64,000 bases of DNA, from assembly GCF_000026545.1 (NCBI RefSeq), contig NC_011601.1; one strand, given 5' to 3'. Below, one piece after another: positions 508 through 26,520 of this stretch. The notes under the pieces were generated by a model. It saw nothing but the letters and a program-made list of their open reading frames with translations. It ran no database searches and was not told the DNA's origin. Position numbers and translations under genes: made by a program. Each line of letters starts with the position of its first letter. Position 1 is the first letter of the stretch. Origin of the DNA: Escherichia coli O127:H6 str. E2348/69 (lineage in GTDB: Bacteria > Pseudomonadota > Gammaproteobacteria > Enterobacterales > Enterobacteriaceae).

Positions 508-2787
508 ATGAGCGAGCCGTTAATTGTCGGCATCCGGCATCATAGCCCGGCCTGCGCCCGGCTGGTGAAATCGTTAATCGAAAGCCAGCGGCCACGATAC
601 GTATTGATTGAAGGCCCGGCTGATTTTAATGACCGGGTAGACGAACTGTTTTTAGCCCACCAGCTTCCGGTAGCTATTTACAGTTATTGCCAGTATCAGG
701 ACGGTGCGGCCCCCGGGCGTGGTGCCTGGACGCCATTTGCTGAATTTTCGCCGGAGTGGCAGGCGCTACAAGCCGCACGTCGTATTCAGGCACAAACTTA
801 CTTCATCGATTTGCCTTGCTGGGCGCAGAGTGAAGAAGAAGACGAATCACCCGATACGCAAGATGACAGCCAGACCTTACTGCTGCGTGCCACCTGCATG
901 GATAACAGCGATACCCTGTGGGATCACTTATTCGAAGATGAAAGCCAGCAAACTGCATTACCCTCTACGCTGGCGCACTATTTTGCCCAACTGCGGGGCG
1001 ATTCCCCCGGAGATGCTCTCAATCGTCAGCGCGAAGCCTTTATGGCTCGCTGGATTACATGGGCGATGCAGCAAAACAATGGCGACGTGTTAGTCGTCTG
1101 CGGCGGCTGGCACGCTCCTGCACTGGCAAAAATGTGGCGCGAATGCCCGCAGGAAATTAACAAGCCAGAATTGCCCTCGCTGGCAGATGCCGTTACAGGT
1201 TGTTATCTCACACCCTACAGTGAAAAGCGCCTTGATGTGCTGGCAGGATACCTTTCCGGAATGCCTGCCCCGGTCTGGCAAAACTGGTGCTGGCAGTGTG
1301 GCTTACAGCAGGCAGGTGAACAACTGCTGAAAACGGTTCTTACCCGTTTGCGCCAGCACAAATTGCCCGCTTCTACCGCTGATATGGCTGCCGCTCATCT
1401 GCATGCGATGGCACTGGCACAGTTGCGCGGCCATACACTACCTCTACGCACTGACTGGCTGGATGCCATAGCTGGTTCGCTGATTAAAGAAGCCTTGAAC
1501 GCGCCGTTGCCGTGGAGCTACCGCGGGGTCATTAATCCCGATACCGATCCGATTCTGGTAACGTTGATAGACACATTAGCGGGTGACGGATTCGGTAAAC
1601 TTTCCCCTTCTACGCCACAACCGCCTCTGCCAAAAGATGTCACCTGCGAACTGGAACGTACCGGAATCTCTCTTCCGGCGGAGCTTACCTTAAATCGCTT
1701 TACCCCCGATGGACTGGCGCAAAGTCAGGTGTTACATCGGTTGGCAATACTGGAGATCCCAGGGGTTGTGCGCCAGCAGGGAAGTACACTGTCACTTGCA
1801 GGCAACGGTGAAGAATGCTGGAAATTAACCCGCCCGCTTAGCCAGCATGCTGCATTGATTGAGGCCGCCTGCTTTGGCGCCACACTCCAGGAAGCCGCAC
1901 GCCATAAATTAGAAGCCGATATGCTGGACGCGGGTGGAATCGGCTGTATCACCACATGTCTTAGCCAGGCAGCGTTAGCGGGTCTGGCGTCTTTCAGTCA
2001 ACAATTACTGGAACAACTCACATTATTAATCGCCCAGGAAAATCAATTCGCCGAAATGGGCCAGGCGCTGGAAGTGCTATATGCCTTATGGCGGTTGGAT
2101 GAAATCAGCGGTATGCAAGGCGCGCAGATATTACAAACGACGTTATGCGCGGCTATCGATCGCACACTCTGGCTATGTGAATCCAACGGCAGACCGGATG
2201 AAAAGGAGTTTCACGCTCACCTGCATAGCTGGCAGGCGCTTTGCCATATCCTGCGCGATCTACATAGCGGCGTTAATTTACCCGGCGTTTCGCTTTCTGC
2301 GGCAGTAGCCTTACTGGAGCGCCGCAGTCAGGCGATTCATGCCCCGGCGCTGGATCGCGGCGCGACTCTTGGCGCACTGATGCGTCTGGAACATCCCAAC
2401 GCCAGTGCCGAAGCGGCGCTGACGATGCTGGCGCAGTTATCCCCGGCACAATCCGGCGAGGCGCTGCACGGTTTGCTGGCGCTGGCCCGCCATCAACTGG
2501 CCTGTCAGCCGGTATTTATCGCCGGTTTCAGCAGTCATTTAAATCAACTGAGTGATGCCGATTTTATCAATGCCCTGCCCGATTTACGCGCGGCGATGGC
2601 CTGGCTACCACCACGAGAACGCGGGACGCTGGCGCATCAGGTGCTTGAGCATTATCAACTGGCGCAACTTCCCGTTTCGGCACTGCAAATGCCGTTGCAT
2701 TGTCCACCACAAGCCATTGCACATCATCAACAACTCGAACAGCAGGCACTGGCATCGCTGCAATACTGGGGAGTTTTCCATGTCTGA
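508..2787 (+). CDS. yehM: Uncharacterized 759-aa protein, second gene of the yehLMPQ operon
   Basis: ATG 508 preceded by GAGGA at 496-500; the track ORF 340-2787 is in the same frame and I take its upstream part as non-coding read-through; stop overlaps the yehP start. Confidence 0.85.
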   Translation: MSEPLIVGIRHHSPACARLVKSLIESQRPRYVLIEGPADFNDRVDELFLAHQLPVAIYSYCQYQDGAAPGRGAWTPFAEFSPEWQALQAARRIQAQTYFIDLPCWAQSEEEDESPDTQDDSQTLLLRATCMDNSDTLWDHLFEDESQQTALPSTLAHYFAQLRGDSPGDALNRQREAFMARWITWAMQQNNGDVLVVCGGWHAPALAKMWRECPQEINKPELPSLADAVTGCYLTPYSEKRLDVLAGYLSGMPAPVWQNWCWQCGLQQAGEQLLKTVLTRLRQHKLPASTADMAAAHLHAMALAQLRGHTLPLRTDWLDAIAGSLIKEALNAPLPWSYRGVINPDTDPILVTLIDTLAGDGFGKLSPSTPQPPLPKDVTCELERTGISLPAELTLNRFTPDGLAQSQVLHRLAILEIPGVVRQQGSTLSLAGNGEECWKLTRPLSQHAALIEAACFGATLQEAARHKLEADMLDAGGIGCITTCLSQAALAGLASFSQQLLEQLTLLIAQENQFAEMGQALEVLYALWRLDEISGMQGAQILQTTLCAAIDRTLWLCESNGRPDEKEFHAHLHSWQALCHILRDLHSGVNLPGVSLSAAVALLERRSQAIHAPALDRGATLGALMRLEHPNASAEAALTMLAQLSPAQSGEALHGLLALARHQLACQPVFIAGFSSHLNQLSDADFINALPDLRAAMAWLPPRERGTLAHQVLEHYQLAQLPVSALQMPLHCPPQAIAHHQQLEQQALASLQYWGVFHV

Positions 2788-3916
2788 ACTGAACGATCTT
2801 CTGACCACCCGTGAGCTACAACGCTGGCGATTAATTCTTGGCGAAGCGGCAGAAACGACGCTTTGTGGGCTGGATGACAACGCCCGGCAGATAGACCACG
2901 CGCTGGAGTGGCTGTATGGGCGCGATCCTGAACGGCTCCAGCGTGGTGAACGCTCTGGTGGATTAGGTGGCTCAAATCTCACCACCCCTGAGTGGATCAA
3001 CAGTATTCACACGCTGTTTCCGCAACGGGTGATCGAGCGGCTGGAAAGCGATGCCGTGCTGCGCTACGGCATTGAAGATGTGGTGACGAATCTCGACGTG
3101 CTGGAACGTATGCAGCCTTCTGAAAGCCTGCTACGCGCCGTTTTGCACACTAAACATCTGATGAATCCCGAAGTACTGGCTGCCGCCCGCCGGATAGTGC
3201 ACCAGGTTGTTGAAGAGATTATGGCGCGACTGGCAAAGGAAGTTCGTCAGGCTTTTTCTGGAGTACGCGATCGCCGTCGCCGCTCATTTATTCCACTGGC
3301 GCGAAACTTTGATTTCAAAAGTACTCTGCGCGCCAACCTGCAACACTGGCACCCGCAACACGGCAAGTTGTATATCGAATCCCCCCGCTTTAACAGCCGC
3401 ATTAAACGCCATAGCGAACAATGGCAACTGGTCCTACTGGTTGATCAAAGCGGATCAATGGTGGACTCGGTGATCCACTCCGCAGTGATGGCGGCCTGTT
3501 TATGGCAGTTACCCGGTATTCGTACCCATCTGGTGGCGTTTGACACCAGCGTCGTCGATCTCACGGCAGACGTTGTCGATCCGGTAGAATTATTAATGAA
3601 AGTGCAATTAGGCGGCGGGACCAATATCGCCAGTGCCGTGGAGTATGGTCGGCAACTTATTGAACAACCAGCGAAAAGCGTCATTATTCTCGTGAGCGAT
3701 TTTTATGAAGGTGGGTCATCATCATTGCTGACGCATCAGGTGAAAAAGTGTGTCCAGAGCGGCATCAAAGTGCTGGGGCTGGCAGCGCTCGACAGCACCG
3801 CAACGCCTTGCTATGACCGCGATATGGCCCAGGCGCTGGTTAATGTCGGCGCACAAATAGCCGCAATGACACCGGGCGAGCTGGCTTCCTGGCTTGCGGA
3901 GAATCTTCAGTCATGA
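2780..3916 (+). CDS. yehP: von Willebrand factor A (VWA) domain protein with a MIDAS motif
   Basis: ATG 2780 overlaps the yehM stop (ATGTCTGA); 378 aa; DQSGS motif at residues 222-226 (nt 3443-3457) sits after a hydrophobic strand (LVLLV), as expected for a MIDAS site. Confidence 0.85.
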   Translation: MSELNDLLTTRELQRWRLILGEAAETTLCGLDDNARQIDHALEWLYGRDPERLQRGERSGGLGGSNLTTPEWINSIHTLFPQRVIERLESDAVLRYGIEDVVTNLDVLERMQPSESLLRAVLHTKHLMNPEVLAAARRIVHQVVEEIMARLAKEVRQAFSGVRDRRRRSFIPLARNFDFKSTLRANLQHWHPQHGKLYIESPRFNSRIKRHSEQWQLVLLVDQSGSMVDSVIHSAVMAACLWQLPGIRTHLVAFDTSVVDLTADVVDPVELLMKVQLGGGTNIASAVEYGRQLIEQPAKSVIILVSDFYEGGSSSLLTHQVKKCVQSGIKVLGLAALDSTATPCYDRDMAQALVNVGAQIAAMTPGELASWLAENLQS

Positions 3917-20428: not shown

Positions 20429-20597
20429 ACCGCCCCCTTGTTGTGAGTTCATGAACCTGACAGTTCAAGTATAAGTCAGCTTGTGATTATTTTTTGTTCA
20501 CTCATGTAATTTGCACCGTCTGATGTACGTCCTTTTTCAGCGTGAATGATTCACAGGGTGTATGCTTACAGGCAAGCAAAGGGAGACAGACTGTCCT

Positions 20598-21176
20598 ATG
20601 GATCTCAATACACTCATCTCACAATATGGTTATGCCGCGCTGGTGATCGGTAGCCTGGCGGAAGGTGAAACCGTGACTTTGCTGGGAGGCGTTGCGGCAC
20701 ATCAGGGGCTATTAAAGTTCCCGCTGGTGGTACTTTCTGTGGCGCTTGGCGGCATGATTGGCGACCAGGTGCTTTATCTGTGCGGGCGGCGGTTTGGCGG
20801 CAAGCTGTTACGCCGTTTCTCGAAACATCAGGATAAAATTGAGCGGGCGCAGAAACTTATCCAACGCCATCCGTATCTGTTTGTCATTGGTACGCGTTTT
20901 ATGTATGGCTTTCGGGTCATTGGCCCGACGCTGATTGGTGCCAGCCAGCTGCCGCCGAAAATCTTTCTGCCGCTGAATATTCTCGGCGCATTTGCCTGGT
21001 CGCTGATTTTTACCACTATCGGTTACGCTGGTGGGCAGGTGATTGCGCCGTGGTTGCACAATCTCGACCAGCATTTGAAGCACTGGGTCTGGTTGATTCT
21101 GGTCGTGGTTCTGGTGGTAGGCGTGCGCTGGTGGCTGAAACGGCGCGGGAAGAAAAAGCCGGATCATCAGGCGTAA
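20598..21176 (+). CDS. yohD: DedA-family inner membrane protein
   Basis: 192 aa from MDLNTLISQYGYAALVIGSLAEGETV. Confidence 0.85.
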   Translation: MDLNTLISQYGYAALVIGSLAEGETVTLLGGVAAHQGLLKFPLVVLSVALGGMIGDQVLYLCGRRFGGKLLRRFSKHQDKIERAQKLIQRHPYLFVIGTRFMYGFRVIGPTLIGASQLPPKIFLPLNILGAFAWSLIFTTIGYAGGQVIAPWLHNLDQHLKHWVWLILVVVLVVGVRWWLKRRGKKKPDHQA

Positions 21177-21183
21177 AACTATT

Positions 21184-21266
21184 GCCCTGGATAAGGTGTT
21201 CGCGCCGCATCCGACATCCGGTGCACCATGCCTGATGCGACGCTGGCGTGTCTTTTCTGGCCTAAC
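21184..21266. repeat. REP pair (BIME-like) between convergent yohD and yohF
   Basis: CTGGATAAGGTGTTCGCGCCGCATCCGACATCCGG and GCCTGATGCGACGCTGGCGTGTCTTTTCTGGCC are two REP-type palindromes. Confidence 0.8.
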
Positions 21267-21295
21267 CCAATGAAATAACCACGCACCTCACTGCG

Positions 21296-22057
21296 CTATT
21301 CTGGGTTGAACTGCGGATTCGCCAACATAAAGCCGCCATCCACTATCAACGACTGCCCGGTGGTGTAATTTGCGCCCTCCGAACAAAGCCATACCACCAG
21401 GCTGGCAATCTCATGCGTTGTGCCAAAACGTCGCAAGGGAATCGAAGGCTCCGCGTCAGGCTTCACGTCGCCGCCATCCATGCCGTTCATTGGCGTGGCG
21501 ATCGCCCCAGGTGCGACTGCATTCACCAAAATCTTATGCCTGACCAGCTCAAGCGCCATCGCTTTGGTTAGCCCACCGAGTGCATGTTTAGCGGCTGTAT
21601 AGGCGCTGGCATCCGGCAGCGGCGTATGTTCATGTACCGACGTAATGTTGATGATGCGACCGCCCTGCCCTTGTTTCACCATCTGGCGGGCCGCAATTTG
21701 CGAGCATAAAAATGCACCATCAACATCAACGGTAAAAATCTTGCGCCACTCATCGAAAGCCATATCAAGAAACGGCGCTTTGGTCATTGTGCCCGCATTA
21801 TTCACCAGCACATCGATGCGCCCCAGCCGTTGAATAAGTTTCTCCAGCGCCATTGCCCCCTCTGGCAGTTTACCGAGATCCAACTGCACCATCTCCGCAC
21901 GTACGCTGTGGCTAACCACCTCACGCGCGGTATCTTTTGCCCCTTCTTCATCTGAGTGCCAGGTAATACCAATATCAAACCCCTGCTGCGCCAGTAATAA
22001 CGCGCACTCTTTGCCGATCCCCGAATCGGAGGCAGTAATAATCGCAACCTGTGCCAT
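21296..22057 (-). CDS. yohF: Short-chain dehydrogenase/reductase family oxidoreductase
   Basis: N-terminal Rossmann motif TASDSGIG; 253 aa from MAQVAIITAS. Confidence 0.88.
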   Translation of the reverse strand: MAQVAIITASDSGIGKECALLLAQQGFDIGITWHSDEEGAKDTAREVVSHSVRAEMVQLDLGKLPEGAMALEKLIQRLGRIDVLVNNAGTMTKAPFLDMAFDEWRKIFTVDVDGAFLCSQIAARQMVKQGQGGRIINITSVHEHTPLPDASAYTAAKHALGGLTKAMALELVRHKILVNAVAPGAIATPMNGMDGGDVKPDAEPSIPLRRFGTTHEIASLVVWLCSEGANYTTGQSLIVDGGFMLANPQFNPE

Positions 22058-22109
22058 CGAGTTCTCCACTTAACGCTGAATAAACGTTAAGTATAGAAGG
22101 CGCATATCA

Positions 22110-23546
22110 TCAGCGTTTGTAACCCCCGCCCAACGCACCAGTGAGTTGAATGGAGGCATCCAGCCACTGCCCTTGCAATAACAGGCCATTGGCCCGCTCA
22201 CGCAGCGCGGGGATTCTGGCTTCGCTAACGCGGGAACCCGCAATGATGCCCGCGTTAAAGCGCGCCTGCGCAAGACCTACTACACGCAAGGCATCGCGCT
22301 CAATTTGCGCCTGATGCTGGTTTTTCTCCGCCAGTGTCTGAACCTGACTGGCTGCCTGCGCCACGTCATTCACCGCTTCAACCACCGCTTTGTTGTAGCT
22401 GGCGATAGACAAGTTGCTTTCGGCTTTTGCGATATCGAGGTTGGCGTTAAGACGACCACTATCGAAAATGGGTAGCGTCAGGCCTGCCGTAACGCCCATT
22501 TGCTGCGCGGAATGACGGAACAGATCGCTTAAGTGCAACGCATCCTGTTGCAGGAAGGCCATCAGGTTGATGTCAGGATAAAATGCCGCTTTTGCCGCAT
22601 CAATAGTGCTTAACGATGACTCAACGTACCAGTGCGCCGCCTGCAAATCTGCCCGCCGGGCCAGTAAGGAGTACCCCAGTTCATCAGGAAGCTGGCTTGC
22701 CACTTTCGGCAACGCGACCGGATTAAGCTTCAATGCCTTTGTCTGGTGATTTGTAAGTGCACTTAACCGTGCCTCAATAATTTTCATTTTCCCCGCGACA
22801 TCATTGAGCTGCTGCCGGGTTTTGCTGGCATTAATATCGGTTTCCACACCTTCAACTGAAGAAGTAATCCCGTTCTGATATAGCTGGCGATCGGTCGCGA
22901 TAATGGTGTTCTGCTCTTTTTCGATTTGCTGCAAGACCGTGTTTAACGCCGCCTGGGTTTGCCACTCCCAGTACAGACGGGCTACGCTGCCAGCCAGCAA
23001 TTGGCGGGTTTGCTCGCGTTCCGCCGCCCGTGCTTTAACCGTACCCAGGCGAGCAGTAACCTCCGCCCGATTCTTTCCCCAGATATCGAGATGCCAGCCC
23101 GCCGTTAAGCCAAAAGTACCGTTGGTGTACCACGGACCGGTCGTACCTGCGGCCGGATCGTTCAGAGCAAACGGCCCCATTAAGCCTTCTGCCGACATTT
23201 TTTGCCGCTCCATATCCGCAGAAAAGTCGAGCTGCGGACCATCCTGAGTGGCAACTGCCTTCGCCTGGGCTTCAGCCAGCTGAATGCGCTGTTCAGCCAC
23301 CTGCATATCCGGTGCGCTCTGTAGTGCGTTATTAATTAAGGAAGTGAGTTGATTATCGTGATACCCCAGCCACCATTGGCTGTCTGGCCAACCATTTTTC
23401 AGCGCCGTGGGTAATACGGTGTCAACTTGTGCAGCGGGCGTTTGCTGGCTTAACGCCTGGCGGGTTTCATGCATAGGCGCACACCCGGCCAGCATCAGTA
23501 ACAGCGAAAAACAGGCGATGGCGGGATAAAAGGAATCACGATTCAT
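22110..23546 (-). CDS. mdtQ: Outer-membrane efflux lipoprotein (OprM/NodT-like); the frame is intact in this window
   Basis: Lipoprotein signal MNRDSFYPAIACFSLLLMLAGC; open frame of 478 aa with no internal stop. Confidence 0.8.
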   Translation of the reverse strand: MNRDSFYPAIACFSLLLMLAGCAPMHETRQALSQQTPAAQVDTVLPTALKNGWPDSQWWLGYHDNQLTSLINNALQSAPDMQVAEQRIQLAEAQAKAVATQDGPQLDFSADMERQKMSAEGLMGPFALNDPAAGTTGPWYTNGTFGLTAGWHLDIWGKNRAEVTARLGTVKARAAEREQTRQLLAGSVARLYWEWQTQAALNTVLQQIEKEQNTIIATDRQLYQNGITSSVEGVETDINASKTRQQLNDVAGKMKIIEARLSALTNHQTKALKLNPVALPKVASQLPDELGYSLLARRADLQAAHWYVESSLSTIDAAKAAFYPDINLMAFLQQDALHLSDLFRHSAQQMGVTAGLTLPIFDSGRLNANLDIAKAESNLSIASYNKAVVEAVNDVAQAASQVQTLAEKNQHQAQIERDALRVVGLAQARFNAGIIAGSRVSEARIPALRERANGLLLQGQWLDASIQLTGALGGGYKR

Positions 23547-23769
23547 GGGGGAATAATCAGGTAAGAAAAGGTGCGCGGAGATTACCGTGTGTTGCGATAT
23601 ATTTTTTAGTTTCGCGTGGCAATACATCAGTAGCAATAAAACGACATATCCAGAAAAATATACACTAAGTGAATGATATTCGCCGATTTATCTTAATCGT
23701 TTATGGATAACGGCAAAGGGCTTCGTTTTTTCCTATACTTATTCAGCACTCACAAATAAAGGAACGCCA

Positions 23770-23853
23770 ATGAAAATTATACTCTGGGCTGTATTGATTA
23801 TTTTCCTGATTGGGCTACTGGTGGTGACTGGCGTATTTAAGATGATATTTTAA
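23770..23853 (+). CDS. yohP: Small membrane protein, 27 aa
   Basis: ATG 23770; MKIILWAVLIIFLIGLLVVTGVFKMIF is a single hydrophobic helix; below the ORF-track cut-off. Confidence 0.7.
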   Translation: MKIILWAVLIIFLIGLLVVTGVFKMIF

Positions 23854-24240
23854 AAATCAGATATGGCATATAAGTTGTCAGGTCAGGAACTCGATATTTT
23901 GTGTACTTGATTTGCAAACAGCTCCGGTGTTGGTGGCGTCAAAATCGCTGAAGCGTTCCCCGAAGGCCGGGGCAGCCCACATGGATGTGGGCTGAGGGCG
24001 CGTCTTACAAGGACGTTACCTCGCGCCCGACCCAGTAGCCGAAGGGGATAAGCTGAAGGTACCGCGCAGCGGAGATTTTGTTCGCCAGAGCCCGGGGGTG
24101 CAGGGGGAGGAGGCGATTGTCCTCCCCCTGCGCGCTCCTTGCGCCAGTGGCAATATGTGGCTTAGCTCATGAAAGGAGCGCAACAAGATGATGAAGCTGA
24201 ATAAGCGATTCATTGTCTCAGATAAGCTGCGATTCCACTA

Positions 24241-25191
24241 TTATCGTAGCTTATCGATATCAATTGCCTGAATAGCCCTTGCAATATCAGGGGAATTATT
24301 CAACACCCGAACATGCTGAAATAATTCCGTTGCTTCATCGTATTCTTTACGCAAATAACTCAACCACTGTTTAATCCGCGCAACGTGATATAACCCGGTA
24401 TCGCCCTGCTTTTCCAGACGGGTATATTTTTGCAGCAAAGCAACCACCTCCGGCCACGGCATTCGCGGTTCGTTATATTTCACCACACGGCTCAGGTTGG
24501 GAATATTGAGCGCCCCGCGACCAATCATCACTGCGTCGCAGCCGCTGATCGCCATGCATTGTTGCGCACTCTGCCAGTCCCAGATTTCACCGTTGGCAAT
24601 CACCGGAATATTAAGCCGCTGGCGAATCTCGCCAATCGCCTGCCAGTCAATATGTTCCGCGCGGTAACCCTGCTCTTTTGTCCGCCCATGTACTACCAGC
24701 TCCGTAGCGCCAGCCTGTTGCACCGCATCGGCGATTTCAAATTTCTTCTCACCGCTGTCCCAGCCCAGACGCACTTTTACGCTGACAGGCAAATGCGCCG
24801 GTACAGCTTCGCGCATCGCTTTTGCACCCTGGTAGATGAGTTCAGGATCTTTCAGTAACGTTGCCCCACCACCGCTACCGTTAACCGTTTTCGACGGGCA
24901 GCCGCAGTTAAGATCCACGCCCCAGGAACCTAACTCCACCGCACGGGCGGCGTTCTCTGCCAGCCACTGTGGGAACTGCCCTAACAACTGCACGCGCACC
25001 AGCGTACCGGATGGTGTCCGGCTGGCATTTTGTAGCTCAGGGCAAATGCGATGAAAGACTTTTACTGGCAGCAGTTGATCCACCACGCGGACAAACTCGG
25101 TGATGCACAGATCGTAGTCGTTAACTTCGGTCAGTAATTCCCGCACCAGAGAGTCAAGTACACCCTCCATCGGAGCCAGTAACACACGCAT
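24241..25191 (-). CDS. dusC: tRNA-dihydrouridine synthase C
   Basis: Start set at the Met giving [13 protein letters not shown]; the exact start is uncertain by a few codons. Confidence 0.85.
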
Positions 25192-25393
25192 ATCATCACC
25201 CGCAAAAAAATGAGGCGCTATGTTAGCGCCTCCGGTCAACGGATTAAAGGTCTGCAAAGAGGGATTGCTGCAAACTGCAATCCCTCTCTATGCTTGATGT
25301 ATGCCTGAGTTCGCTGCGCATTGTGTAATACCGGGGAGCGAAAAAATAAGCGCTGATTTCTTAATGTGATCGGTAGCACGTTTTACGAATTAA

Positions 25394-26520
<1,127 letters not shown>

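Follow-up and report, generated by a model that had tools for sequence, protein, structure and literature searches.

An intact mdtQ gene in enteropathogenic Escherichia coli E2348/69 and the single-base deletion that disrupts it in K-12

Outer-membrane factors (OMFs) differ in their partners: VceC with VceAB, OprM with MexAB and CusC with CusBA. Linkage of an OMF gene to a pump or adaptor gene is typical and not obligatory. TolC is not a lipoprotein. The nearest paralogue family of MdtQ is MdtP (YjcP), the outer-membrane subunit of the putative MdtNOP pump; both are NodT-type lipoprotein OMFs. However, mdtP lies in an operon with the adaptor gene mdtN and the pump gene mdtO (PMC11762307), whereas mdtQ stands alone. 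According to a 2025 review, the function of MdtQ has not been elucidated, its promoter is without experimental confirmation, and a comparison based on AlphaFold has been published for the protein, which has no solved structure (PMC11762307). The same review describes mdtQ as core-conserved in E. coli despite its pseudogene label (PMC11762307), and in papers on K-12 the locus goes by the name "the mdtQ pseudogene" (PMC12719787).

The window, as the whole stretch of DNA analyzed here is called, comprises 64 kb and is byte-identical to the reverse complement of positions 1781095-1845094 of NZ_CP059840.2, the E2348/69 chromosome. The mdtQ gene in it was compared with annotated and published counterparts. 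MdtQ (YohG) of O157:H7 (Q8X659), WP_001078181.1 and the NCBIfam family NF008524 all denote the same protein; the protein in the window matches the E2348/69 RefSeq MdtQ exactly, and its gene has the same context. PGAP labels the gene a normal CDS in this strain. The exact protein has already been deposited publicly, among others as the original E2348/69 entry CAS09833.1. It belongs to a 90%-identity cluster of 11,156 sequences; the members listed carry the name MdtQ and have a length of 478 aa (a few are 508 or 479 aa). We are very confident that the window carries the ordinary wild-type mdtQ (formerly yohG) allele of enteropathogenic E. coli (EPEC) E2348/69 and that K-12 is the exception. An intact mdtQ is therefore not new in itself: it is annotated by RefSeq in E2348/69, and its core conservation was already noted in the 2025 review.

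A preliminary description of this DNA had reported an uninterrupted ORF of 478 codons starting with a lipoprotein signal peptide. Its coordinates and description are right, and we add that the gene lies on the minus strand, which had not been given. Under uniform codon usage, the chance of 478 sense codons in a row is about 1e-10. The ORF list holds a longer mechanical version of the frame, which begins at a TTG at 23636 and encodes 508 aa. The RefSeq start is the ATG at 23546, and residue 1 from this start pairs with position 1 of the MdtQ HMM. The N-terminus, MNRDSFYPAIACFSLLLMLAGC, consists of a charged n-region and a hydrophobic core followed by a lipobox, L-A-G-C, that is kept in 9/9 alleles compared. 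Mature MdtQ is predicted to begin with Cys22 in lipidated form. Coordinates of these features are collected in the table below.

Features of the mdtQ locus, in positions of the window
Feature	Position	Strand	Basis
mdtQ CDS, 478 codons plus stop, intact	22110..23546	-	ORF list and translation; RefSeq CDS WP_001078181.1 at the same coordinates in E2348/69
First OEP repeat, residues 69-266	22749..23342	-	Pfam PF02321, E 5.5e-30, best stretch
A5 run (T5 on the plus strand), gene nt 148-152, codons 49-51	23395..23399	-	Pairwise alignment with MG1655 b2139
Lipoprotein signal peptide, codons 1-22, MNRDSFYPAIACFSLLLMLAGC	23481..23546	-	Read from the translation
Lipobox LAGC, Cys22	23481-23492	-	Translation
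mdtQ upstream region, up to yohP	23547..23769	-	Alignment to K-12, promoter scan
yohP	23770-23853	+	Annotation

Profile searches place the product among the OMF lipoproteins of the NodT/OprM/VceC type, and the HMM scores leave no ambiguity about family membership. The MdtQ equivalog model NF008524 matched the window protein with 1017.1 bits against a cut-off of 650 and was aligned over 1-478 of 478 residues. TIGR01845, which describes NodT-family efflux outer-membrane subunits, scored 272.3 bits, above its cut-off of 210.05. The MdtP family model NF007390 gave 350 bits (E 2.6e-104), which is below its own cut-off of 597. Two stretches of MdtQ matched the Pfam OEP domain PF02321, the second one toward the C-terminus. 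The closest solved structure by sequence is VceC of Vibrio cholerae (1YC9; E 2.6e-39, residues 51-477), followed by OprM, SilC, CusC, CmeC, MtrE, OprN and OprJ. MdtQ is predicted to share the OMF channel architecture with VceC (1YC9), OprM (1WP1) and CusC (3PIK), although the relationship is distant. Identity to TolC is only ~12% (PMC11762307), and MdtQ scores below the TolC-family cut-off of 225 bits.

By homology to these channels, the MdtQ precursor would be exported and cleaved by signal peptidase II, lipidated at Cys22 and delivered to the outer membrane, where it would assemble as a trimer with a beta-barrel and an alpha-helical tunnel. This trimer may be the exit duct for a tripartite efflux pump. 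From sequence we infer a putative role in efflux, and the "functional" status of the gene is to be read in the same qualified way.

The gene order yohF-mdtQ-yohP-dusC is common to E2348/69, K-12 and seven other strains. In the window mdtQ is flanked by yohF, which encodes an SDR oxidoreductase, and by the divergent yohP, which encodes a small membrane protein; dusC and yohD are further neighbors. Inspection of the neighboring genes revealed no pump or adaptor gene and no transporter operon adjoining mdtQ. The missing linkage does not exclude membership in the OMF family, because TolC is likewise unlinked to its pumps.

The region 5' of mdtQ was examined for signals of expression. Positions 23547-23855 are nearly identical to K-12, with four differences in the alignment. 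Reading of the upstream sequence found no Shine-Dalgarno-like purine run before the mdtQ start codon (…CCTGATTATTCCCCC directly preceding ATG), and the promoter scan found no sigma-70 consensus match in the 223-bp interval between mdtQ and yohP (23547-23769). The only minus-strand promoter-like match, at 23869-23842, overlaps the 3' end of yohP. Overall, the promoter and terminator scan performed no better than shuffled expectation and returned nothing convincing directly 5' of mdtQ. A search for structured RNAs and riboswitches across 21000-25500 gave 0 Rfam matches at the gathering threshold.

Some minor points about the neighborhood were noted. The mechanical ORF of yohD (20562-21176) starts 12 codons 5' of the annotated 579-nt DedA-family gene, and that of yohF (21296-22069, GTG) starts four codons 5' of the annotated ATG; both differences are ordinary start-codon ambiguity and are not features. 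Between yohP and dusC, an element of ~272 bp (23930-24201) is inverted relative to K-12 and is only 88% identical to it, with flanks that are ~98-100% identical. The element is the counterpart of the TRIP1c repeat, whose two orientations are about equally frequent across E. coli genomes and which has been linked to large chromosomal inversions (PMC10888264).

The state of the gene in K-12 was established by alignment with the MG1655 reference (NC_000913.3), where mdtQ (b2139; 2227323-2228758) is annotated as a pseudogene of 1436 nt. The preliminary description had K-12 listing this locus as a disrupted gene, the old yohG/yohH pair; this proved correct, and the disruption is a true 1-bp deletion. 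The MG1655 listing contains no separate b2138 between b2137 (yohF) and b2139, which fits a merging of the old pair. A global alignment of the window gene with b2139 contains 27 substitutions and exactly one gap, at 98.1% identity. The possibility had been raised that K-12 is identical here and that the label has nothing to do with a reading-frame lesion. The two sequences are not identical, and the gap is a deletion in the A5 run at codon 50, where GAAAAAT has become GAAAAT (A5 to A4, gene nt 148-152). This is the sole frame lesion in K-12 mdtQ. The window has the A5 run in place of the K-12-type A4. K-12 mdtQ is a known pseudogene; what is characterized here is its lesion, the loss of 1 bp from an A5 run.

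The consequences of the deletion can be read from the K-12 frames. Translation from the native start would stop after 69 residues, 49 native and 20 out of frame. The downstream frame is open for 436 codons and its first possible start is residue 81, so any product made from it would be without the signal peptide. With the missing base restored, the frame runs for 478 codons and contains no further stop. The allele repaired in this way differs at 1 nt from its intact counterpart in T7Express, a B strain, and at 2 nt from that in ETEC4085. Such closeness to intact alleles indicates that the lesion arose once and very recently, on an allele of the ordinary phylogroup-A type.

The distribution of intact and broken copies was then assessed in 5426 complete E. 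coli genomes, of which 5421 matched the mdtQ region. The survey of the full collection covered the k-mer at the lesion site and the length of the match, and the codon-by-codon check covered seven strains. An exact match to the in-frame A5 45-mer was present in 4912/5426 genomes, and the K-12 A4 44-mer matched exactly in 355/5426. Most genomes with neither exact k-mer presumably have a SNP close by; O99:H6 is an example. Sixty genomes were also sampled evenly over the whole identity ranking: the match spanned exactly 1437 nt in 55, was of the K-12 type (1436 nt) in four and was truncated in one. In each of the seven strains that were translated (APEC PSUO2, T7Express, ETEC4085, O111 RM9322, O157:H7 9234, O99:H6 CU42ET-1 and the river isolate KOr019), the gene is intact, encodes 478 aa and is annotated as a normal CDS. 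Intact mdtQ is the species norm, and K-12 is the outlier.

This distribution bears on the suggestion, made before the comparison, that the window comes from a lineage that keeps a functional copy. The frame is indeed intact, but such a copy is not rare, since the A5 form is found in 4912 of the 5426 genomes, and the word "functional" went beyond the frame itself. Among the seven diverse strains, pairwise dN/dS ranges from 0.10 to 0.23 against the window gene and is 0.10 on average when all pairs are taken; these values point to purifying selection on mdtQ.

Losses were observed outside K-12 as well. The truncated copy in the sample of 60 belongs to STEC379 (NZ_CP091024.1), in which the N-terminal 60% of mdtQ is gone and an IS1 element adjoins the remainder. 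In this record (2248-3573), IS1A stands in place of the 5' part of the gene, and the C-terminal 40% that is left is listed as a pseudogene, a partial "TolC family protein". In Salmonella Typhi and Paratyphi A, mdtQ truncations have been described in some isolates (PMC9241588). Separate losses in K-12, STEC379 and these Salmonella serovars suggest that mdtQ is dispensable in some niches.

These observations raise the question of whether the intact gene is used. mdtQ of E2348/69 could be cryptic, that is, poorly transcribed or translated and giving no measurable efflux, in which case the difference between an intact and a broken copy would be without phenotypic consequence. This is compatible with the identification of the gene as the ordinary wild-type allele, and we regard it as a possibility worth keeping in view, although somewhat unlikely. 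The lack of a Shine-Dalgarno-like run before the ATG and of a sigma-70 match between mdtQ and yohP fits a silent gene, although consensus scans are weak evidence of absence. The orphan position of mdtQ, with no linked pump or adaptor, points in the same direction, as do the separate losses in K-12, STEC379 and some Salmonella Typhi and Paratyphi A isolates and the reviewers' remark that the promoter lacks confirmation and the function has yet to be elucidated (PMC11762307). However, two observations speak for selection that retains MdtQ: dN/dS values of ~0.1-0.2 across phylogroups, and an in-frame allele at the lesion site in at least 90% of complete genomes. A phenotype has also been reported: mdtQ null mutants are said to be mildly hypersensitive to puromycin, acriflavine and tetraphenylarsonium (cited in PMC11762307 and PMC9241588). 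These reported sensitivities count against a cryptic gene, subject to the strain background. Null mutants made in K-12 would be difficult to square with such a phenotype, given the frameshift there.

The wild-type reading of the window gene, with K-12 as the exception, has practical implications. K-12 is atypical at mdtQ and should be used with caution as a guide to this gene. Negative results for MdtQ obtained in K-12, including those from Keio-type mdtQ::kan strains, are uninformative about the protein in natural isolates, and phenotypes ascribed to "mdtQ null mutants" have to be read in the light of strain background. Because the laboratory reference strain alone is without MdtQ, it is conceivable that MdtQ of wild E. 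coli is a second exit duct that K-12 efflux genetics has overlooked, acting in TolC-independent export with an EmrAB-, MdtNO- or AaeAB-like pump. MdtP and VceC, its closest relatives, work with pumps of the MFS type. We put this forward as speculation that is unlikely to hold; if it were true, some drugs or metabolites would be exported without TolC in wild E. coli such as E2348/69.

The E2348/69 allele itself was compared with others in order of identity. Across the 1.7-kb mdtQ region, 100% identity is confined to the E2348/69 assembly and two O127:H6 records, and the next best match is 98.8%. The same three assemblies are the only ones to reach at least 99% over mdtQ, and the nucleotide difference from other alleles is about 1.2-2.8%. 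Among nine alleles, four amino-acid changes (P14S, E61G, S271A and K275N) and three synonymous changes are private to E2348/69. Intactness had earlier been thought to bear on strain identity. It does exclude K-12 and says nothing beyond that; the strain is identified by the sequence of its mdtQ allele, not by the intactness of the gene.

The E2348/69 gene might be in frame yet impaired by lineage-specific missense changes, as a "missense pseudogene". Four private amino-acid changes against three private synonymous ones, relative to eight other alleles, would be in keeping with this, as would the restriction of matches at or above 99% to three assemblies, with 98.8% as the next best. However, P14S lies within the cleaved signal peptide, S271A and K275N lie within a patch (residues 262-275) that is variable among intact alleles generally, and the MdtQ HMM is matched over its full length with 1017 bits, far more than the cut-off requires. 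Impairment by these changes is accordingly very improbable. Relaxed selection on the E2348/69 allele was considered and rejected, as four versus three changes are too few for a rate test and changes are located in the signal peptide or the variable patch.

An artefact of annotation or sequencing behind the pseudogene label of K-12 has next to no chance of being the explanation. Sequencing errors do classically fall in homopolymer runs, but the artefact is refuted by the alignment of the window gene with b2139 (1436 nt in MG1655 versus 1437 nt in other strains) and by the A4 counts, the allele being exact in 355 genome records, 60 of which, when sampled, span many laboratories and the K-12 substrains MG1655, BW25113, DH1, DH5alpha, C600, J53, MC4100, JM109, TG1 and others.

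In that even sample of 60 of the 355 A4 genomes, 59 have strain names or sources that mark them as K-12 laboratory derivatives, S17-1 among others. The remaining record is EcN_Sk (NZ_CP172017.1), in which mdtQ is 100% identical to K-12, so that K-12 DNA is present at the lesion site in all 60. An independent slip to A4 outside K-12 was considered for this record and rejected; its mdtQ is 100% K-12 and the flanks are K-12-like, which identifies the segment as K-12 DNA. EcN_Sk has a genome of 5.06 Mb, is named after Nissle 1917 and originates from Herdecke. At 1761340-1766383 it carries the K-12 pseudogene with 0 mismatches within a K-12-like locus of 5 kb, of which 1662 nt are 100% and 2995 nt are 99.6% identical to K-12, with TRIP1c flipped. 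EcN_Sk may be a hybrid or recombinant strain, or the record may reflect an assembly or labelling issue. No other genome matches its 5 kb above 99.3%.
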